From assembly GCA_918797485.1 (NCBI GenBank), contig CAKKNE010000003.1, positions 1,116,001-1,180,000 of the forward strand: a DNA stretch of 64,000 nucleotides, given 5' to 3'. The position numbers and the translations under genes are program-made. The notes beneath the pieces are model-generated. The model searched no databases. It saw nothing but the letters and a program-made list of their open reading frames with translations, and had not been told where the DNA came from. Positions 3,413-50,159 of the stretch are shown here, in pieces. Source of the stretch: Pelagomonas calceolata. Lineage: Eukaryota. Positions within the stretch are counted from its first letter, which is position 1. Every line of letters starts with the position of its first letter.

Positions 3413-3436
3413 GCTAGCGGCCGGTAAGACACTAGC
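3413..3436 (+). promoter_or_regulatory. Recurrent intergenic motif GCTAGCG-N4-GTAAGACACTAGC
   Basis: Near-identical copies at 8 or more intergenic sites; this one is 200 bp upstream of ATG 3636. Confidence 0.55.
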
Positions 3437-3635
3437 AAGCAGCAAGGCTCGGCTGCCATTCGCTTTGTAGCCAGGCGGGCACGTCTGAGCTTCGTTGCAA
3501 GGTCAAATTATCTTCTTCTTATACGGCGACAAGCTTGCGCGCCGAATCATCAGTGATCGTGAGGCGCACGGAGAGCACAGGGGCCACATTTACAAGGCAC
3601 AGCTGCAGCGTGCCAGCACTCGCCAGCCGAGCATC

Positions 3636-5773: not shown

Positions 5774-5796
5774 GCTAGCGTCTGTAAGACACTAGC
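5774..5796 (+). promoter_or_regulatory. Recurrent intergenic motif GCTAGCG-N3-GTAAGACACTAGC
   Basis: Between divergent genes, about 85 bp upstream of ATG 5882. Confidence 0.55.
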
Positions 5797-5881
5797 AAGC
5801 CGAGCAGCAGCAGCAGCACTTTGCGAGGATTACAAGCGGCTGCGCGCGGCGCATCGCTGCGTCCCTTGCCACTCTGCACAG

Positions 5882-7525
5882 ATGCGCCTCACCCTCGCAC
5901 TCCTCGCATGCAGCGCGGCCGCGGCGGCGGAGCGCGCCTGCGAGGCGCTGCCGCCTTTAACAACCACGCGAACGAAGCCCTCCGTCGACGGCGGCTCGAA
6001 CCTGTTCATTGGTGGAGCGAGAAAGCCCTGGGACGGCCGCGTCGCCGAGGTGACGAGCCCGGTGTTTGACGAGGCGACCGGCGCGAAGGCGGTCCTGGGC
6101 CGCCTCGCGCAGATGGACGCGACGGCGGCGAGCTGGGCCGCCGACGCGGCGAGCGAGGCCTGGGACCGGGGCCAGGGGCCCTGGCCCCAGGCGTCGCTCA
6201 AGGAACGAGCGGCAGCGATCCGCGCGTTCCTCGACGAGCTCGAAAAAACGAAGCGCGACGAAATCATCGAGGTCCTCATGTGGGAGATCGCCAAGACCAA
6301 GCAGGACGCGACAAAAGAATTTGATAGGACCGTGGCCTTCGCGCGGACCGTCGTAGATCAAGCTTTACAAACCGACGCGACGGAGCAATTTGGAAGATGG
6401 ACCGGCGTCTCGGGCGTAAGGGCACGAGTCCGACGGGGCCCGGTAGGCGTGACGTTGATGCTGGCGCCCTACAATTACCCCTTAAATGAAATGTACGCGA
6501 TGATGATGCCCGCGTTACTGATGGGAAACCCCGTGATTTTGAAATTGCCGGCGATCGGGGCGTTAGCGCACGTTTTGACGATTGACGCCCTGCAGAAATG
6601 TTTACCGAAAGGTGTGGTGAACTTTGTCAGTGGTTCGGGGCGGGAAACGCTACCGAGCGTGATGCAGGGCGGGCTGGTGGACTGCCTCGGGTTCATCGGC
6701 GGGTCGAAGGGCGCCGACGCGCTCATCAAGCAGCACCCGCACCCGCATCGATTGAAGGTGTTTTCCCAGTTGGAGGGGAAGAACCTGGGGATTGTCTTCG
6801 CGGACGCGGACCTGGACGAGGCGGTGCGCCAGATTTTGTTGGGCGCGCTGTCGTACAACGGCCAGCGGTGCACGGCCATCAAGTTGGTGATTGCCGAGAA
6901 AAGTATCGCGCCGGTCTTGGTCGACAAGTTGTCCAAGGCCATCGAAGAGTTACCAAGGGGCCTGCCGTGGGACGCCGGCGTCGAGATCACCCCCCTCCCG
7001 GAGCCGAACAAGCCCCAGTACCTCGCCGAGCTGGTGGAGGACGCGACGAGCCAGGGCGCTCTTATAAAAAACGCGCGGGGCGGCGCGACGAACGGCCAGC
7101 TCTACCACCCCGCTCTGGTGTATCCGGTGACCCCGTCGATGCGCCTCTTCCACGAGGAGCAGTTCGGACCCGTCGTGCCCGTCGCCGAGTTCGAGCAGGT
7201 GAGTGAAGTCATTGACGTCGTCAAGGCGTCGTGGAACGGCCAGCAGGCCGCGGTGTTCACGTCGGACGCGGCCAAGGCGGCGCCGCTCGTCGACGCGCTG
7301 TCTACCATCGTCGGCCGGGTCAACGTGAACATGCAGTGCGCGCGGGGGCCCGACGTCTTCCCCTTCTCGGGGCGACGGTCGTCGGCCATGGGCACGATGT
7401 CGACCACCGAGTCGCTGCGGGCCTTCTCCGTCGAGACGCTCGTCGCCGTGCGCGACGACGACGCGGGGCGGGCGTTCGGCGACGCGCTCTCGACGCGGGC
7501 GAAGTTCCTGCTGCCGACGGCGTAG
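5882..7525 (+). CDS. Aldehyde dehydrogenase family, probably non-phosphorylating NADP-GAPDH (GapN-like), with signal peptide
   Basis: APYNYPLNE, FIGGS, SYNGQRCTAIK (catalytic Cys), EEQFGPV, RGPDVFPFSG; N-terminus MRLTLALLACSAAAA. Confidence 0.85.
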   Translation: MRLTLALLACSAAAAAERACEALPPLTTTRTKPSVDGGSNLFIGGARKPWDGRVAEVTSPVFDEATGAKAVLGRLAQMDATAASWAADAASEAWDRGQGPWPQASLKERAAAIRAFLDELEKTKRDEIIEVLMWEIAKTKQDATKEFDRTVAFARTVVDQALQTDATEQFGRWTGVSGVRARVRRGPVGVTLMLAPYNYPLNEMYAMMMPALLMGNPVILKLPAIGALAHVLTIDALQKCLPKGVVNFVSGSGRETLPSVMQGGLVDCLGFIGGSKGADALIKQHPHPHRLKVFSQLEGKNLGIVFADADLDEAVRQILLGALSYNGQRCTAIKLVIAEKSIAPVLVDKLSKAIEELPRGLPWDAGVEITPLPEPNKPQYLAELVEDATSQGALIKNARGGATNGQLYHPALVYPVTPSMRLFHEEQFGPVVPVAEFEQVSEVIDVVKASWNGQQAAVFTSDAAKAAPLVDALSTIVGRVNVNMQCARGPDVFPFSGRRSSAMGTMSTTESLRAFSVETLVAVRDDDAGRAFGDALSTRAKFLLPTA

Positions 7526-7559: not shown

Positions 7560-7709
7560 CCCTCGACGACGCGCCACAAGGTCTTCGAGTGCGCTCTCAG
7601 CGTCCGCAGCTCTGCGAGCTTCGACAGGTCTATTTTCTCGGCTTCGCGCCGTCGCTTCTCCTCCTCGGCCTTGGCGGCGGCGGCACGGCGTCTTCGCTCC
7701 GCCTCGGCG
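7560..7709 (-). pseudogene. Orphan linker plus WD40-like stub downstream of the kinase-receptor gene (relic or alternative 3' exon)
   Basis: Reads AEAERRRRAAAAKAEEEKRRREAEKIDLSKLAELRTLRAHSKTLW; 7652-7684 is identical to 9480-9512. Confidence 0.5.
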
Positions 7710-10700
7710 CTATTGAATACTACAAGCGCAGCTGTCCGGCGGCGATTCCCATACCTCTCCACCGGTCCCCTGCGGTACGGCCTCCACGCGCGTAAAGTAC
7801 TCATTTGGTTCAGGCCAATGGCACGTATTATCATCAAGCGTAAGGCGCTTGATCTGACTTCCCGCATAATCACCAGGTCCAAGTGTCACCAAGTAGGCTC
7901 CCTTCTCGCCCGCAATGGGCTCAGCCTTCGCAAACGTACCAGACCAGCCTTGGGTCTGCCATGTGCCAGTGCCGTCCGCAAACCACGTCTCATGCGTGCG
8001 CGAGTCACGGCCCCCCGGATGACCCCAATGTTCCACCCAGATTGGTTTCCATTTACCTTGGAAAACATGCGCGGCGCCCCGGCCGCGGGCTGGGCTGCCG
8101 GACAACGTGATCTTGTACACGGCATTGGTCAACCCGCCACCCTGCGCTTCGATTACACCCACCACGCCTGGCACACGCACACGGGTGCTCCGGCCGGCCG
8201 AGCCCCCCGCACCCACCCGACGGAAATGCTCAGCAGGACCCACCGACTCAAAGACAGCGACGCCTTCACCACATGGATACTGCAGGGCAAGATAGCCGAC
8301 GGTGTGGCCCTCGCGCGCGATGCGATCGACGAGCTGCTGTACTGACGCCGCAACGTCGCGAGACCAGTAGAACTTGCCACCTTCCTGGGGCTTGCAGCCT
8401 GGCAGCGGGCTCGGCATCGGTGGAAAGGTGCGTCCCCAATCGTCGCGCCACAGGCCCATGTACTCGAGCGTCGCATTCGCCGTGGGTACGCCGCCGCCGA
8501 CCGCGTCCAACCCGCGGTCCGCCTCGCGCTGCGCCTCGTGGGCCGCCTCATTGGCCTGCCCACGCACGTCCTGGACGGTGCGAAGCGGCGGCACCGGGCG
8601 CAGCTCGAAGCGCTCCCACTGCCACTGGTGCTGCCAATGCCCCATCGCAGGGCTGTCCACGCCGCCCTGGTCGGTGACGCGCAGCCAGCGGTTGGTCGCC
8701 GGATTGTGCAAGCCCACGGTGCCGTCGCGATTATGCCTCACGACGAAGCGCTCCCACTGCCAGCCCTGATTAAACGCTTGGCCCTTGGCCGGTGAGTCGG
8801 CGCCGCCATGGTCGTTGACACGCAGCCAGCGGTCAGTCTTGTAGTTGTAGAGCCCGATCTGCCCGTGACCGACGTTATGCATCTCGAAGCGCTCCCACAT
8901 CCAGCCCTGATTAAACCCGCCAATCGCCGGGCTGTCGGCACCGCCGTGGTCGGTGACGCGCACCCAACGGCCGGTGGCGCGGTTGAAAAGCCCGACGGTC
9001 TGGACCGTCTGCATGTGATGGGCGAACTGGTCCAGCTTTTGCGCGTCTTCCAGCTTCTTCGCGGCCCTGCTGTAGTGCTCCTTGCCGCCGTGGCACGCCT
9101 GCCCGGAGCCGCCGAGCGTGACCTTGTGTATCTGGAGCTCACCGTCTCCACCGATGTGGTTAATTGCGCCTGAGAAACCGGGAATTCTAATGTTCTGGTG
9201 GTTGCGCCCGGTGTGGTGATAACCGTGATCGCCTTTCCTGTGACGACCACCCTCCGAGAGTCGATGACGGTCCTTCTCAAAGCACCAGAATATTTCGCCT
9301 CCGCACTCAATGCCGAAGTACCCCACGCCGCCGTTGCGTTGGAGCTCCGGTAAGAAGCGATCTTGGAAGCAGCGAGCGATCTCATCGTTTGAATGATACT
9401 TCCACCCCAGTGCGGCACTGCCGTGGTTGAGACGTGGTCCACCGGTAAAGCACCCGAGATCCTCTATCGTGCCGCGCTTTCGCTTCTCCTCCTCGGCCTT
9501 GGCGGCGGCGGCGGCTTCGCGCCGCTTTTTCTCCTCGGCGGCCGCTTCAGCGGCGCGAAGCTTCCGCTCTGCCTCGGCGGCCTGTGCTTCGGCGGCGAGA
9601 CGCTGCCGCCTCTCCTCAGCGGCCTTCGCCTCTGCTTCGGCGGCGAGGCGTTGCCGCCTTTCCCTGGCGGCCTCGGCTTCGGCTGCGCGGCGCCGCTGCT
9701 CGGCCTCGGCCTCGTCCTCCTCGTCCTCCTCCTCCTCCTCGACGATCGTGGCGCCACCCGCGAATACCGATGCGCCGGTTGCGAGTGCCCACTCGACGCC
9801 CTGCGCCGCGGGTCGCTTCATCGGATTATGCTCGAGCATCGCGGCGACAAGGCAGCCGAACCTGGCCGACGCGGCGTTGGTCTCGTCGATCAGCGCCTTC
9901 ACGGCCTTGGGGTCGAGCGCGAAAACACCCGTGCTGCGAGCCTCTACAAGCTTTCCCGTGACCGCGCCGCCGAGCATGCACCCCAGGGCCCAGACGTCGT
10001 CCTTGCCGTCGTAGGCCCTGCCCATCGCCTTCTCCGGGGATCGGTACATGTCAGCGCCGACCTTGTTGGCGCCGCCCGCCGAAGAGACCTTGCTCTTGGC
10101 GAGGACGACTTCGGCGAGCCCCAGGTCGATGATTCGCGCGTTTTGGTGCTCGTCGAAGAGCACGTTGTCCGGTTTCAGATCGCGATGTTGCATCCGCAGG
10201 CCATGCATGTACGCGAGCGCCGAAGCGACCTGCCGCGCCCACTGCGAGGTCTGCTCCTCGCGCTCTCGCTGACCGCACGTGAGAGGCCCGCGCTCCCGCT
10301 CGATGCGGGCGAGTAGCGAGCCCCCGGCCAGAAACTCCATGGCAATCGCATAAAACTTGTCCTTCTTGAAGCGAAAGGCTGTGAAGTAGCGGACGATGTT
10401 CGGATGGTTCAGCATCGAGAGCCGTGCCGCCTCTTCCCGTAGCTTTTTGACGCCGACGCCCGTCTTTTTGATCTTCATGAGCTTGACGGCGTACAGGCGA
10501 CCGTCGTCCTTGTTCTTCATCCTGTGCGTCGTGCCGAAGGAGCCCTCGCCCAGGAGCGACGCCTCCTGGTCCGAGTCGTCCGAGTCGTACGGATCGTACA
10601 TGAAGCGCTCCTGCGCCGCGGCTTCGTTCGCGAGCAGTTGCTGGACCCCGGCCTTGAGCTCGTCGAGCGAATCCTGCTGGCGCGCGTTCTGGTCGATGAC

Positions 10701-11435
10701 TGTGCTCACGTCCTCGGCGATCCGGTCCAGCTTGAGCCCGAGCGCCGAGAGCTCCTCGCGCTCGACGGCGCTGCCCTTCGGGATGCCGCACATGATCGCT
10801 GCCCGCTGCGCCGCCGCCTGGTTGTTCGCGTCGACCGTCTGCTGGCCCAGAAGCTGGATCAAGCCCTCGATCTTCTCGAAGCGCTGCGCCTGCAGCGCGA
10901 GCTGTTGGAGGTCCAACGCCGAGCCGAGCTCGTTGCTGAGCTCACAGAGCCGCTTGTCGAGGAGGCCGAAGCGCCGCGCGTCGAGCGAGCCGGAGCAGAG
11001 CTTCGCGAACGCGCCCTTCTTCGAGAATTGTTGAATAAATTTCGCCGCCTCGTCGAGCGCCTGGCCGATGGCCGTCACCGTCCGAGCGACGGCCTCGACC
11101 TGTCCCGTCGGCAGGCCCTGCGTCGCTTTGACGACGTCCTGGAGCTTCTGGGCGATCTCAACTCCGCGGCGCTGCAGCAGCGCCGCGGCCTCCTTGTTGA
11201 AGCGCACCTGGCGCACCGCGAGGCCGAGTTCGGCTAATCCATGCGCAAACGGCATCAGACACATGTTGAGCGGCGGCGGCGCGACCGCTGGGAGTGCCGC
11301 CAGAATTCCAGAGAGCGGTCCGAGGACGTCGGTCTGCGACGCCGTGAGTGTGGCGCCGGCGCCGGCCGCTGCGCCGACGGCCACCGCGGCCTTAGTGGAT
11401 GACGATGCCTTCGTTGCGGGCGCGACCCTCGCCAT
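7710..11435 (-). CDS. 1241-aa multidomain protein: MLKL-like N-terminal helical domain, Ser/Thr kinase, charged linker, WSC-like, beta-trefoil, WSC-like, CaaX
   Basis: VRQVRFNKEAAALLQRR...ALDEAAKFIQQFSKKG..AKL...DARRFGLLDKRL; GEGSFG/AVK/HRDLKPDN/DLG; three repeats of GLxN..T.RWxRVxD.GGxDSPA...WxWERF; ends CACSIQ. Confidence 0.85.
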   Translation of the reverse strand: MARVAPATKASSSTKAAVAVGAAAGAGATLTASQTDVLGPLSGILAALPAVAPPPLNMCLMPFAHGLAELGLAVRQVRFNKEAAALLQRRGVEIAQKLQDVVKATQGLPTGQVEAVARTVTAIGQALDEAAKFIQQFSKKGAFAKLCSGSLDARRFGLLDKRLCELSNELGSALDLQQLALQAQRFEKIEGLIQLLGQQTVDANNQAAAQRAAIMCGIPKGSAVEREELSALGLKLDRIAEDVSTVIDQNARQQDSLDELKAGVQQLLANEAAAQERFMYDPYDSDDSDQEASLLGEGSFGTTHRMKNKDDGRLYAVKLMKIKKTGVGVKKLREEAARLSMLNHPNIVRYFTAFRFKKDKFYAIAMEFLAGGSLLARIERERGPLTCGQREREEQTSQWARQVASALAYMHGLRMQHRDLKPDNVLFDEHQNARIIDLGLAEVVLAKSKVSSAGGANKVGADMYRSPEKAMGRAYDGKDDVWALGCMLGGAVTGKLVEARSTGVFALDPKAVKALIDETNAASARFGCLVAAMLEHNPMKRPAAQGVEWALATGASVFAGGATIVEEEEEDEEDEAEAEQRRRAAEAEAARERRQRLAAEAEAKAAEERRQRLAAEAQAAEAERKLRAAEAAAEEKKRREAAAAAKAEEEKRKRGTIEDLGCFTGGPRLNHGSAALGWKYHSNDEIARCFQDRFLPELQRNGGVGYFGIECGGEIFWCFEKDRHRLSEGGRHRKGDHGYHHTGRNHQNIRIPGFSGAINHIGGDGELQIHKVTLGGSGQACHGGKEHYSRAAKKLEDAQKLDQFAHHMQTVQTVGLFNRATGRWVRVTDHGGADSPAIGGFNQGWMWERFEMHNVGHGQIGLYNYKTDRWLRVNDHGGADSPAKGQAFNQGWQWERFVVRHNRDGTVGLHNPATNRWLRVTDQGGVDSPAMGHWQHQWQWERFELRPVPPLRTVQDVRGQANEAAHEAQREADRGLDAVGGGVPTANATLEYMGLWRDDWGRTFPPMPSPLPGCKPQEGGKFYWSRDVAASVQQLVDRIAREGHTVGYLALQYPCGEGVAVFESVGPAEHFRRVGAGGSAGRSTRVRVPGVVGVIEAQGGGLTNAVYKITLSGSPARGRGAAHVFQGKWKPIWVEHWGHPGGRDSRTHETWFADGTGTWQTQGWSGTFAKAEPIAGEKGAYLVTLGPGDYAGSQIKRLTLDDNTCHWPEPNEYFTRVEAVPQGTGGEVWESPPDSCACSIQ

Positions 11436-16670: not shown

Positions 16671-16780
16671 GCGCGTCGCATCGCACCACGACTCCTCCGC
16701 CCGAGTAAAAACGTCTATCCGAACATACCGCTCCTCGGGCCTGTCGGCGGTTGAGTTGCGGAATCGGCTGCGGCCGCCGA
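16671..16780 (+). repeat. About 100-bp dispersed direct repeat A, copy 1 (copy 2 at about 18996-19100)
   Basis: TCGCACCACGACTC(C/A)TCCGCCCGAGTAAAA..CGTCTATCCGAACATACCGCT shared by both copies. Confidence 0.85.
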
Positions 16781-17697
16781 ACCAACCGTTTTGTTGCTTT
16801 TTGGCTTCGACATGTGTGCAGTCGTTTAAGTACCGTTCGGTTCGCTAATGGTCCAAAGAGATCAATGGTGCACTTACTGGGCGGCGAAAAAAATATTTTT
16901 TTTAATTCGCGATATTGACGGTCCCGCCATGACGGCCGCGTCGATGGAATCCTGTCGATTCGCGGTCCCGAGGTCTCCCTGGGGTCGCTTAGGGTCGGTC
17001 TATAGATGGTTAGTCGCCCACACCGCATGCGCCGCCGCTTCGAGGGATTATCGGCCAATTCTCTCAACACTCCAAGCCACTCAAGCATGAATTACTTGGC
17101 AATGGCTTCCAGGGCTCTCCGAGACCACTAGGCGGCTGCATCGATGGCGTATGCGGTACAGGCGACTACCCACTACCAGACCTACCCCGAGAGGCCTCCA
17201 GGAGCCGATCTGCCCCCGAAAAAAGTGTGTAATTTGGACCCGATGGCGCCCCGTTCCCGTCAAATACGGCAATTACCCGAGGGCCCCCAGTAGTCGCCGT
17301 AGCGGTCTCGTTGGACCCCATACTACCCCAGCGATAGTCAATTACAAGTATATGACATCTACACCACGAGAAGGGTACTTTGGACTGCACACGCTCGGGA
17401 CGTGAACATCTTGATCTGGACCTCGCGCAAGTCGGTCGTTCATGGAACAAATGGTCGCGTCATGGTCCATGGTGATGGTACACGGGCTGATGGTCGCAGG
17501 TCCAAGTAATTCGCCCACCTTCGCTAGATCTTGGTCGCGCAAGTCAGACGAGGCGCGGGAGCATTTGGCAATAGGAAATCTAATGTAGTAGGTGTTCAGG
17601 CCGGTTATCTGGCCCGTCCCATACCCAAAGCGCCTCAAACGCGAATTTATTTTATAAACCACCGGTCTGGGGCCAATTCAGTGCCCCGCGTACGCAC

Positions 17698-17786
17698 CGT
17701 CGTCCGCGGAGAACTGGCAAGTCGGTCGATTGTGAATAGAACAACGGCGTTATGGTCCATCTGGATGGTGTCGTCGCTGATACTCG
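17698..17786 (+). repeat. About 90-bp dispersed direct repeat B, copy 1 (copy 2 at about 18288-18384)
   Basis: CGTCGTCCGCGGAGAAC.GGCAAGTCGGTCGAT.GTGAATAGAACAACGGCGTTATG shared by both copies. Confidence 0.85.
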
Positions 17787-18139
17787 CGGGTGCAGGATCT
17801 AGGTCGATCTTCATGAAAACGTGGGGGGCGCGAAGTCGCTTCGCGGCGAGGCTATAACGGAGTACATGATCATTCTAGTGGGGTGTTCTAGCGGTCTGGA
17901 TGGACTCTACCGATAACAAACGGAAGGAAACGAACATAAACGCGAGAGTTGTCTAGTAGAATTCTTCTCCCGCCCTCCGAGCGCGGGCCGTCGGCTCCGG
18001 TTCCGTCGATTATGTATGAAAACTGGACTCGAGTTGATATGATGTACCATTTGGACGGTAGAAGGCACCGTCAATCGCTGGTGTATTTTGGCGAGCCGTA
18101 AGACCTGGTGATCTAGCGTATCGACATACTAGGAATCCG

Positions 18140-18193
18140 TATATATATAATATATATATATTTATATATACATACATATAATATACATGTATA
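18140..18193. repeat. Imperfect (TA)n microsatellite
   Basis: TATATATATAATATATATATATTTATATATACATACATATAATATACATGTATA. Confidence 0.95.
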
Positions 18194-18823
18194 GGCCTAG
18201 GCGGATGGCTTTTGAAAAAATACCTCTCCGACTGACCCCGAATAGTGAAGTTCGGTCCGTCTACGCGTGTCGTCTCCGTCTACGCGGCGTCGTCCGCGGA
18301 GAACGGGCAAGTCGGTCGATCGTGAATAGAACAACGGCGTTATGTCGTTATGGTCCATCTGGGTGGAGTCGTCGCTGATACTCGTACTTCTAGGTATTGT
18401 GCTCGTTTTCGCATAAACGCGGGGGGCCCAGACTCGTCTGGCGACTCGGCGACGGCGGCGACGGCGGGGCGACCTCGGGCTCGCGGCGCGGCGACGGCGG
18501 CGACGCCGGGGCGACGGCGGCCTGGACATCCTCGCGGCGGCGGCGCGGTGGCGGCGGCGACGGCGACCGCGGCAGAGCGTCCTCGCGGCGCCGGCGCGGC
18601 GGCGTCGACGAGCTCGCACGCGACGGTCTCTGAACAGATCCGGTCCTGGCGGCAACCGCGCCCACTGCGTTGGGTCCGACGCCGAAGGGACCCGGTCTTC
18701 ACGACCTAACTGATTTTGCCACTGGTTGTGCTTACCGGTGGCCGCGGCCATGGCTCGTTGGAATAGGGTAGATAGCCCGTAGACAGCCGATTCCGGCTAA
18801 AGTCACTAAACTGGTTCACAAAA

Positions 18824-18863
18824 AACTTACGTTTTCGGAGCCTAACTTACGTTTTCGGAGCCT
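18824..18863 (+). repeat. Perfect 2 x 20-bp tandem repeat
   Basis: AACTTACGTTTTCGGAGCCT occurs twice in tandem. Confidence 0.9.
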
Positions 18864-19455
18864 AAAGCGCTTCGACGGTCGACCTCGGCCACGACACACC
18901 CGTCGGTCACGCGGACAGCGGCGGCTATGTCGGACAGCCGGTGGACACGTTTTCGACATGGTCGCGTCGACGGCGTCGTCGGCGAAGGGATCTGAGCGCG
19001 TCGCACCACGACTCATCCGCCCGAGTAAAACGTCTATCCGAACATACCGCTTCTCGGGCTGTCGGTGGAGGATGGTTGCTGAATCGGTTGCGGCAACCGA
19101 TTCCGACGGCGTCGTCGGCGAAGGGATAAAGTCCCGATGTACTTCCTCAAACGCTTGGCAGGGCGTCGGTAGGGACCCGTGGTGGCTGGGCGCGAGCGAG
19201 CGGCCGCCGTGGTACGCGTAAGCTACGGTGTCGAGTGCCCATATTTGAATCAAACAAGTCCAGGTCCTTGCTCGCAAAAAAAAACAAGCAGCAGGGTTCG
19301 ACGGCGGTCGGCAGCCCCCCGCGCGAGCCTCGTTAGGCCCCGATGGTGCCCATGGGCAGCGTTTTTGTCGCCGCTGGTCAATGTTTCCTGCAAGTGGCTG
19401 GGGCGGCCTAGTGCGAGTGGCTGCTAGGGGGTAGACCGCTGAGCAGCGCTTGCTT

Positions 19456-19479
19456 GCTAGTGTCTTACCGTTCGCTAGC
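19456..19479 (-). promoter_or_regulatory. Recurrent intergenic motif, reverse orientation
   Basis: GCTAGTGTCTTAC-CGTT-CGCTAGC. Confidence 0.5.
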
Positions 19480-47867: not shown

Positions 47868-50159
47868 ATGCCAGGGCCCTCCCCGACCGAGAAGTTCCTG
47901 GCCGCGGCCATGGCCGTCGCCGAAGACGCGCCGCCGCCGCGCCAGGACGCCGAGGGCCACGCCTTCGAATACGTGGACGCTATTATAACACGGCCCGCGA
48001 CCGGTATGGAAATGGCCGTCGAGCTGCAAGACAACAAGACGGCGGTGCTGACCGTGGCCACGGTCTGGCCCGTGTCCGAGGGCCATGGTATTGTCAAGGC
48101 CACCGATGTGCTCGCTAGGATCAACGGCGTCCCGCTCACGGATTTGCTGCGGGAGGTCGGTTTGGAGCTGCCCGTGGACTTTCCGCTCGTCAAGCGCTAC
48201 GTGCGAGCTCGGCCTAGGCCCGTCACACTCACGTTCCGGACGAGAGCGGGCCGCGACTTCGTCCAGAGTTACCAGGACTCCATCCATGACAGAATAAAGC
48301 GCGTCGTGCGCAAGTGGCGACTGAGGGTCGCCGCGCGGAAGGCGGACGACGTGCCGCCCCTCGTCGACAGCACTGCTCACGACGACGACGCGCGCTCGGC
48401 GGCGTCCGACGAGTCCTGGGCCACCGAGGCGAGCGAGGCGGTGGCACAGCCGCGGCGGAAGAAGCGGGGTTCGAAGCGCCATGTCTGCCCGACGACGATG
48501 CCGCCGCCGCGGACGTCGCCGCATCGCAAGCGACCGAGCGTCAAAGCAGCTGCCACAGCCAAGGCCGAACGCGAGGCCGCCGAAGCGAAGACCACTGAGG
48601 AGAAGCGCCAGCGTGAGGCCGCCGCCGAAGCGGAGCGGAGACGCGCCGCCGCCGTCGCCGCCGCTGAGGAGAAGCGGCAACGCGAGGCTGCCGCCAACGC
48701 CGAACGCGAGGCGGCCGAAGCGAAGGCCGCCGAGGAGAGGCAACAACGCGAGGCCGCAGAGACCGAGCGGAGGCGCGCGGCCGCCGCCGCCGAGGAGAAG
48801 CGGCAACGGGAGGCCACCGCTGAGGCGGAGCGCCGCGCAGCCGCCGAAGCTGAGGGGAAGCGCCAGCGCGCCGCCGCCGCAGCTGAGAGGAAGCGCCAGC
48901 GCGAGGCGGCGATCGCGGACGAGAAACGGCGCGCCGCGGCCGCACAGGCCGGCGCAGAGAAAAGCCCCAAGAAGAAGTCCGCCGCGGCTGCCCTCTTCCC
49001 CGCCGCCACTGTAGATGATGATGACGCGTCCCCGGCCCGGGGAACGACGCCGCTCGACGCCGCGGAGCCCGCGAGCCCGCCCGACGTGGCGGCGTCGCCG
49101 TTCCTGGCGACGCTCGAGCAGTTCCACGCCTCGGCCACGGCGCCGGCGCCGCGCTCGCCGCCCGTCGCGCGCCGGCAGGCGCCACCGCCGCCGCCGCCCG
49201 TCGCACTGCAGCCTGCCGTTGTCGTCGCGCCGCCGCCACCGCCAGCACAATCGCAATCGCCGCCCGACGCCGTCGTCGACGCGGCGCCGCCTCCGCCGCC
49301 ACCGCCTGCACGACCGCAACCGCCGCCCGACGCCGTCGTCGACGCGGCGCCGCCTCCGCCACCGCCCATCGAGCCGCCAACGCCGCCGCTGGCGGCCTAC
49401 GACGTGGGTAAAGCGCAGCCGCCGCTGTCCGTCTACCCGCGGTCGCCGCCGCCCGCGCGCGCGCCGCCCGTCGCGCTGCCGCCGCGGTCGCCGCCACGGA
49501 GCGCGCCGACGACGCCGCGGCGCCGCCAAAGCAGCACATTGCGGTCGCCGCCCAGGAGCCCGACGACACCGCGCCGCCAAAGCGGCACCGCAATGTTCCG
49601 CGCCAAGCCGGCGCCGCCGTCGCCGACCGCGATGGGCGGGCGCCGAAGCTCCGTGCCCGCGGCGCCGCGCGCTTCTTTCTCAGCGAAGCCCGCGCCGACG
49701 TCGCCGCGAGACGCGTCGCGTTCAGCGCGCCGCGAGTCGCGGGAGTCCGCCAAACTGGCGCGGCGGGCCGCCGCGGAGGAAGCCGCGGCGCGGAGGCGTG
49801 GTTGTGTGCACAAGTCGGCCGCGAGGCGCCGCGCGTCGGCGCGCCGCCTGTCCGCTACTGCGACGCCACCTGCGCGTCGGCCGTCCCAAGTCCGGGACCT
49901 CGAGGAACGCGTCGCGCGCGAAAGGGCCGCCGTCGAGCGCCTCCGCGCAAAGGTCGCGGCGCCGTCGGCGCTCGACGAGCAACGTGCGGATCTCGACGCA
50001 GCCCGTCGCGGCGTTGCGGCACTGCGGGACGCGGTACGCGTTCGGCCTGTCGCAGCGGTCACTCTCGCCGCCCCGGACTCGGACGACGACCTATATCCCG
50101 CCGGGCTCGACTGGGTAGAGCCCTTGCTGGTGCGGGGGGAGGTGGTTGGTAATTCGTAG
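47868..50159 (+). CDS. Hypothetical protein: PDZ-like N-terminus, charged repeat coil, Pro-rich region
   Basis: VKATDVLARINGVPL...RPVTLTFR (PDZ-like); EEKRQREAAAEAERR repeats; duplicated PPDAVVDAAPPPPPP. Confidence 0.65.
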   Translation: MPGPSPTEKFLAAAMAVAEDAPPPRQDAEGHAFEYVDAIITRPATGMEMAVELQDNKTAVLTVATVWPVSEGHGIVKATDVLARINGVPLTDLLREVGLELPVDFPLVKRYVRARPRPVTLTFRTRAGRDFVQSYQDSIHDRIKRVVRKWRLRVAARKADDVPPLVDSTAHDDDARSAASDESWATEASEAVAQPRRKKRGSKRHVCPTTMPPPRTSPHRKRPSVKAAATAKAEREAAEAKTTEEKRQREAAAEAERRRAAAVAAAEEKRQREAAANAEREAAEAKAAEERQQREAAETERRRAAAAAEEKRQREATAEAERRAAAEAEGKRQRAAAAAERKRQREAAIADEKRRAAAAQAGAEKSPKKKSAAAALFPAATVDDDDASPARGTTPLDAAEPASPPDVAASPFLATLEQFHASATAPAPRSPPVARRQAPPPPPPVALQPAVVVAPPPPPAQSQSPPDAVVDAAPPPPPPPARPQPPPDAVVDAAPPPPPPIEPPTPPLAAYDVGKAQPPLSVYPRSPPPARAPPVALPPRSPPRSAPTTPRRRQSSTLRSPPRSPTTPRRQSGTAMFRAKPAPPSPTAMGGRRSSVPAAPRASFSAKPAPTSPRDASRSARRESRESAKLARRAAAEEAAARRRGCVHKSAARRRASARRLSATATPPARRPSQVRDLEERVARERAAVERLRAKVAAPSALDEQRADLDAARRGVAALRDAVRVRPVAAVTLAAPDSDDDLYPAGLDWVEPLLVRGEVVGNS

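Follow-up and report, generated by a model that had tools for sequence, protein, structure and literature searches.

A stranded WD40-entry stub behind a modular MLKL_N-like kinase gene: probable scar of a past tail replacement

The kinase gene and its four-module tail

The locus described here lies within a 64,000-nucleotide stretch of Pelagomonas calceolata DNA (referred to as the window) and comprises a kinase gene on the minus strand, a short stub behind its stop codon and a convergent aldehyde dehydrogenase (ALDH) gene on the plus strand. The following features were delineated:

7710..11435, minus strand: single open frame of 1241 aa with MLKL_N-like domain, kinase, charged linker and four-module tail
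10887..11213, minus strand: MLKL_N-like helical domain (aa 75-183; Pfam PF22215), followed by a predicted helical brace
9801..10562, minus strand: Ser/Thr kinase (aa 292-545; Pfam Pkinase, E 2e-44) with intact AVK, HRD, DLG and SPE motifs
9480..9746, minus strand: Glu/Ala/Arg-rich linker, common to the family, whose tails differ from here on
9480..9512, minus strand: first copy of a 33-mer, directly before the tail
9111..9473, minus strand: tail module 1 (aa 655-775), no Pfam family
8592..9002, minus strand: tail module 2 (aa 812-948), a beta-trefoil of three repeats (RicinB_lectin_2, E 0.0037)
8088..8474, minus strand: tail module 3 (aa 988-1116), no Pfam family
7710..8072, minus strand: tail module 4 (aa 1122-1241), ending in a stop codon of its own
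7580..7709, minus strand: out-of-frame stub in the 3' UTR, consisting of the last linker unit and a WD40-entry peptide
7652..7684, minus strand: second copy of the 33-mer, within the stub
7562..7579, minus strand: first WD40 intron of the family, likely its start in decayed form, with TT in place of the GT donor
5882..7525, plus strand: convergent ALDH gene (Pfam Aldedh, E 1e-87) with RNA on the opposite strand to the kinase gene

Minus-strand RNA depth spans the entire 1241-aa frame, for which no intron joints were listed in three RNA runs. The named homologues of the protein are all Aureococcus proteins, in keeping with a pelagophyte alga as the likely host. The ALDH gene bounds the stub and is no part of the kinase system.

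The N-terminal domain scored 22.8 bits against PF22215 in the whole protein and 27.4 bits when scanned alone, which is borderline relative to the curated cut-off of 27. Its model consists of four predicted helices and a long brace at moderate confidence (mean pLDDT 56.5). A Foldseek comparison with the solved MLKL structure 6ux8 yielded a weak match (probability 0.93, TM 0.51, E 0.5), and against 6zvo a Z score of 7.0 was obtained in a re-ranking of Foldseek's matches (rmsd 3.6, 119 aligned residues, rank 33), with several unrelated helical bundles scoring above it. A sequence search of the domain against solved structures gave no match. The resemblance of the modelled fold to MLKL is weak and not distinct from that to other helical bundles.

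With NEK1 as its best solved relative (E 2e-29), the kinase is NEK-like as judged from its sequence, and its intact catalytic motifs set it apart from pseudokinases. Because these motifs are intact and the best solved relative is NEK1, the protein is not an animal-type MLKL. It resembles animal MLKL in an N-terminal domain that reaches the Pfam MLKL_N cut-off when scanned alone and may do so in its predicted helical bundle with brace, but differs from it in the intact kinase motifs and in a long, variable C-terminal extension. Third-position GC amounts to 0.59-0.70 in modules 1, 3 and 4 as compared with 0.84-0.88 in the front half of the gene, in line with a different origin of the tail.

The tail spans 589 aa, and each of its four modules is 77-95% identical to parts of other proteins. 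A search of 1.84 billion representatives returned 268 matches at E up to 0.001, of which the best 150 were listed; all of the 16 matched proteins that were read, except for the gene's own transcript, correspond to single or neighboring parts of the tail only. A pattern search, which detects close relatives only, revealed none in viral or prokaryote contigs. Module 1 is 91-96% identical in P0085, where it has a different neighbor, and module 3 is found in P0084 (95%) and P0086 (91%), each of which sets it among other neighbors. The two modules are likely related to each other by sequence; their profile match reached a probability of 99%, a value inflated by one sequence common to both alignments. 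Neither matched a solved structure. An AlphaFold model of the tail computed without an alignment (pLDDT 37) was set aside.

The initial annotation had placed a WSC/trefoil module after the first 33-mer. The trefoil is borne out by module 2, which matches RicinB_lectin_2 as well as the designed trefoil 4qks (E 2.6e-6), has a 77-86% identical counterpart in P0083 and a homologue, P0089, that passes the Pfam cut-off. The Atlas lead for the trefoil (0.86) lies below the Atlas trust line, and all leads from the Atlas searches were under 0.9. The WSC label, in contrast, is unsupported, as Pfam identified no family in modules 1 and 3 at E up to 10 and no WSC domain among nine homologues; the modules might nevertheless be remote kin of WSC domains. 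Another gene of this organism, seen through a joint from 9016 to 8599 in RNA as well as DNA, carries tandem trefoils about 90% like module 2 and out-reads the kinase gene at window positions 8599-9016. In the wild run X17, a single contig joins module 1 to other sequence at 9475 and at 9103, and its loose letters at 9103 resemble 8480-8496, as if the trefoil were skipped.

The last part of P0087 matches module 4 at 80% identity and terminates with it at the same point (CACSIQ); the stop codon therefore belongs to module 4. We take this end to be CaaX-like. Ends of this kind, consisting of Cys-x-Cys and three further residues, occur on two unrelated tails of this kinase, at 7713-7730 and in P0074, hinting by their sequence at membrane anchoring.

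An exact repeat and the stub behind the stop codon

The sequences at 9480-9512 and 7652-7684 are identical, as had been reported in the initial annotation, with 33 nt being the maximal exact match; both copies lie on the minus strand in the same codon phase and encode AAAAKAEEEKR. A search allowing up to three mismatches recovered only these two places in the window, and none of 100 shuffles contained two matches. In the two collections scanned, one of prokaryote genomes and one viral, the exact 33-mer was absent (0 matches each), so that neither there nor in the window is it common in unrelated charged-linker genes, a possibility that had been raised against its significance. It is the second-longest exact direct repeat of the window, the longest being a 40-mer at 63 nt spacing. 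The pair is real, exact and beyond chance. The second copy does lie behind the stop codon, although not immediately as previously described, since 25 nt of further linker (7709-7685) separate the two.

Several other repetitive elements were observed in the window. An unrelated frame of 763 aa at 47868-50159, which has no Pfam match, contains a charged linker of units much like those of the family. A dispersed intergenic repeat of about 29 nt occurs in both orientations upstream of genes (3413-3441, 5775-5805 and 19451-19479), and at 16677-19127 direct repeats of 24-69 nt, apparently non-coding and 91-100% identical, form a cluster that perhaps represents a decayed mobile element.

The stub, which lies in a frame open from 7885, agrees with the C-terminal end of P0017 in 29 of 42 aa, and its order of units recurs in P0024, P0068 and P0072. 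Its WD40-entry peptide was present in 18 of the 39 fetched homologues reaching the kinase-end motif, a set picked by pattern among the proteins fetched from many samples and including near-duplicates. At locus L005, a 56-nt GT-AG gap comes after the same peptide, and a 126-nt WD40 exon (Pfam E 1.6e-9) after the gap. Consequently, the objection that the stub might lack WD40 homologues was not borne out, although a WD40 profile found no match on the stub itself.

Further towards the ALDH gene, positions 7579-7562 agree in 12 of 18 nt with one of the L005 introns (shuffle p about 6e-4) and in 9 of 18 with the other. This likeness ends after approximately 18 nt, with only 2-3 of 18 matching in the next 18 nt. 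In run X18, the intron start of a paralogue begins at the same place (loose end at 7580). The stub had been read as entering a WD40 repeat, and it does hold the family's WD40-entry peptide; the letters that were taken for the VW of the repeat, however, read TLW and likely belong to the decayed intron.

On its other side, the paralogue match to the stub ends exactly at 7709 (side 29), and the linker of P0024 equals the window linker plus the unit that opens the stub. The right breakpoint is therefore placed directly after the stop codon. Paralogue RNA reads match 7586-7628 and diverge on both sides. Stranded RNA runs through the stop codon into the stub, with depths near 7700 of 76, 20 and 42 in X21, X24 and X22, respectively, and six molecules of X21 begin at 7560. 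As coding sequence, the stub is dead: it lies in the 3' UTR, its donor reads TT, no WD40 exon comes after it, with the ALDH stop following about 40 nt further on, and no RNA joint into it was listed for X21, X24 and X22. Use of the stub as an alternative C-terminus, as suggested earlier, is not supported.

Apparent exchange of tails and front ends in the kinase family

The census of paralogues was drawn from homologue searches and read mapping and consists mostly of metagenome predictions, in which mis-joins at repeats are possible. The organism's own DNA contains multiple copies of the family, as summed depth in run X3 rises to about 1900 where single-copy parts have about 170. Three other X3 contigs leave the linker at 9501, and a near-identical linker is present in P0024, P0074 and P0054/L005.

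Paralogues had been predicted to carry differing C-termini, including WD40, behind the kinase and linker, and this was found. Over 284 residues, the kinase of P0024 is 97.9% identical to that of P0077, 94.7% to that of P0025 and 93.0% to that of P0074. These four proteins (92-98% identical kinases) end in WD40-entry, ankyrin, ubiquitin and second ankyrin tails, although metagenome chimeras are possible among them; the opposite outcome, one C-terminus shared by all paralogues, was not observed. In total, the tails found right after the kinase end of relatives include WD40 entry, ankyrin, ubiquitin, Tudor, RanBP-like zinc finger, armadillo, DUF285, PARP and hydrophobic sequences. In a tree of 29 kinases, from which rows with fewer than 200 aligned residues were left out and from which P0074 and P0077 are absent, the supported clade with this protein (96/89) consists of four rows with four tails. 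The armadillo tails come from Aureococcus genome records, and the P0003 tail is documented in three sources. P0043, a fusion of EPSP synthase to this kinase, looks like a metagenome assembly chimera.

A second stranded old tail was identified at locus L002, where kinase, Tudor domain, Cys-rich tail and stop codon are followed about 140 nt later by an ankyrin remnant (L002:2095-2343; Pfam Ank, E 1.6e-6). In L001, Tudor domain, linker and ankyrin are in frame.

Swapping also appears to affect the front end. In P0004 and P0005, an MLKL_N-like domain of 91-92% identity stands before a TKL-like kinase, and the kinase of this locus elsewhere follows other helical domains, suggesting at the sequence level that the MLKL_N-like domain is itself a swappable module. 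In P0005, the domain is located behind an N-terminal WD40 array. It was also found (window 10686-11345) in the receptor-like proteins P0006-P0016, which combine it with DUF285 or Fea1, a predicted membrane segment and a TKL-like kinase.

Origin of the arrangement and comparison with known systems

We consider it likely that the repeat and the stub are the scar of a past, DNA-level replacement of the tail in a modular MLKL_N-like kinase gene. What this reading draws together has been observed, namely the repeat, the open frames, the stub's homology, the mosaic composition of the tail, the read-through RNA and the varied tails on near-identical kinases; the order of events and the repair mechanism are what we infer. 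The ancestral gene would have consisted of kinase, linker and WD40 exons, as in many relatives. A four-module gene end including its own stop codon would then have been copied into the repetitive linker, with the left joint passing through shared linker sequence (the 33-mer) and the right joint falling exactly after the donor's stop codon (7710/7709). As a result, the rest of the old linker and the end of the first exon would have been displaced into the 3' UTR, where the splice donor would subsequently have decayed, with loss of the WD40 exons. In X14, a single DNA contig of low depth (3.3) in which the 9501 side adjoins the 7709 side speaks for this reading, but it is from another organism and possibly from a paralogue, and no cassette-free allele was seen at this locus in the read runs. 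A simple target-site duplication does not account for the repeats, as there are 25 extra nt on the right; these might stem from later slippage between GCC runs or from linker sequence that the donor itself carried. The possibility that a frameshift had severed the stub from an internal cassette was rejected, since the stop codon is native to module 4, at whose last residue P0087 ends too. For the kinase-plus-stub piece, an origin by retroposition from spliced mRNA is unlikely, as the stub keeps an intron start. The proposal that modules are exchanged at the linker by recombination or insertion is supported by the 33-mer, the varied tails and the WD40-linked homologues of the stub.

The main rival to tail replacement holds that the stub is the remnant of a second, tandem family member, with a deletion having removed the 3' UTR of the first gene and nearly all of the second, whose linker end was left behind the stop codon. 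This scenario is improbable, but several observations speak for it: the family is multi-copy, its linker units are near-identical among paralogues, so that 33 shared nt need not represent a duplication, and a single contig of the wild run X18 leaves the ALDH 3' UTR at 7566 without a stub. It would, however, require two deletions leaving about 145 nt, the stub starts exactly at the unit that this linker lacks relative to P0024, and L002 exhibits the same layout of a stop codon followed by an old tail. The notion that low-complexity linkers are alike merely by chance, or that the repeat was mis-assembled, is already largely refuted and can be given hardly any weight. The linker of the unrelated 763-aa frame is 78% alike over 69 nt, and short-read contigs break at both 33-mers with none bridging them; the wild contigs of X15 and X17 across the stop codon were not counted as bridging, as they hold 20 and 27 stub-side letters where at least 31 are needed. 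Yet the linker of the unrelated frame contains no copy of the 33-mer within three mismatches, the homology continues past the low-complexity part through the WD40 entry into the intron start, the protein is recorded on a contig of 5.39 Mb, and RNA depth is continuous across the stop codon into the stub.

Two further scenarios would keep the stub in use. In the first, which is very unlikely, recombination between the 33-mers excises the tail as a circle and restores another C-terminus in some cells. Both copies share their codon phase, and the transcript-assembly protein P0073 runs from the tail end through the first unit of the stub and the 33-mer back to the tail start, as an excision circle or a tandem copy would. 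A 33-nt repeat produces such loops in short-word assemblers, and P0073 is probably an assembly loop, because the raw reads contain no such joint: none removing or looping the tail was listed in X21, X24 or X22 at thresholds of 3 reads and 2-3%. The RNA examined represents 6-12% of each run, the three runs come from one sample and linker depth is about 5-11, so that a minor form is possible. Excision would leave a product with neither splice donor nor WD40 exons, and the tail in DNA run X3 forms one contig, broken at both 33-mers, of single-copy depth (171.7, with flanks at 163-184). Each of the 14 culture-type runs contains 0.69 or more of the words, above the 0.57 possible without the tail. 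The least probable scenario, to be regarded as barely credible, is that the AG at the stop codon serves as acceptor, so that the linker is alternatively spliced to the stub. The CAATAG at the stop had been noted as a possible acceptor, and an AG does directly precede 7709, a TTGTAG lies 14 nt upstream and the region is transcribed on the right strand. No joint into 7709 or nearby was seen, however, at depths of 20-76 in X21, X24 and X22, and there is no WD40 exon into which the stub could lead. The sole joint touching the stub, 9626 to 7681, is assigned to the linker of a paralogue, because 5 foreign letters lie between its ends and because it is also present in DNA (depth 103). Consequently, there is no support for alternative splicing as a route of tail exchange.

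Returning to tail replacement in a modular kinase gene, the closest known architecture is the wheat Pm13 MLKL-K, in which, according to the accessible part of the study, an MLKL N-terminal domain and brace are combined with a functional Ser/Thr kinase as a recent fusion of two domains (PMC11297308). When architecture only is compared, the protein of this locus appears similar in its MLKL_NTD-like domain, brace and kinase with intact motifs, whereas it differs from the plant MLKL-K, as far as described there, in its NEK-like kinase, in the variable tail after the kinase and in its host, likely a unicellular alga (PMC11297308). The part of a further article at hand names plant and fungal MLKL homologues, with no mention of algae or stramenopiles (PMC11476962).

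The closest modes of evolution, within the portions of both sources considered, are the assortment of fungal NLRs (PMC4986451) and the shuffling of repeat exons in brown algae (PMC3341825). Fungal NLRs are described in these portions as recurrent architectures in which 80-99% identical cores are joined to unrelated end domains, with WD40 or ankyrin C-termini (PMC4986451). Similarly, near-identical kinase cores (92-98%) carry unrelated tails here, with metagenome chimeras being possible. In contrast to the fungal genes, the core is a kinase, and no NACHT or NB-ARC domain was among the eight Pfam families found in the protein at E up to 1; the swaps described for fungal NLRs are N-terminal, while those observed here are C-terminal at the charged linker and, in addition, N-terminal (PMC4986451, in part). 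The protein is not an NLR, and kinship with the NLR-like receptors drawn on for comparison in the initial annotation is not supported; the likeness is one in the mode of assortment. The brown-algal genes, as reported in the sections available, are candidate receptors of a stramenopile with one repeat per exon and inactivated pieces near the gene; no shuffled exons were reported there at the kinase loci of that study (PMC3341825). One WD40 repeat per predicted exon also occurs in L005, where 126 nt lie between GT-AG gaps of 56 and 50 nt (one locus). Unlike the brown-algal shuffling described there, it is an intronless four-module gene end, rather than single exons within introns, that would have entered the middle of an exon here, with both joints in the linker exon. 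In the open literature searched, which excluded subscription journals and supplements, no description of this modular kinase family was found, and it is apparently undescribed.

The tail may bind a ligand, with the trefoil perhaps recognizing a glycan, and would be a putative "sensor". The architecture suggests that the kinase and the helical domain might act in stress or cell-death signalling, for instance in defence against viruses. A far-reaching extension, which we regard as doubtful, is that pelagophyte picoalgae maintain a population-wide repertoire of MLKL-like death kinases by ongoing linker-guided recombination, in which gene ends are captured as sensor tails, front domains are swapped and excision circles (P0073) occur as intermediates, yielding combinatorial antiviral receptors.

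To our knowledge, little is known of the defence genes of abundant marine picoalgae. The locus exhibits domain shuffling with both the new and the old tail still readable and with the linker as its likely route, and the family represents an apparent kinase-centred counterpart of fungal NLR assortment and plant MLKL-kinase fusions. If the reading of the varied tails is true, it would constitute a mix-and-match receptor family, and the question of whether candidate immune receptors are diversified by recombination in wild algae is now testable.
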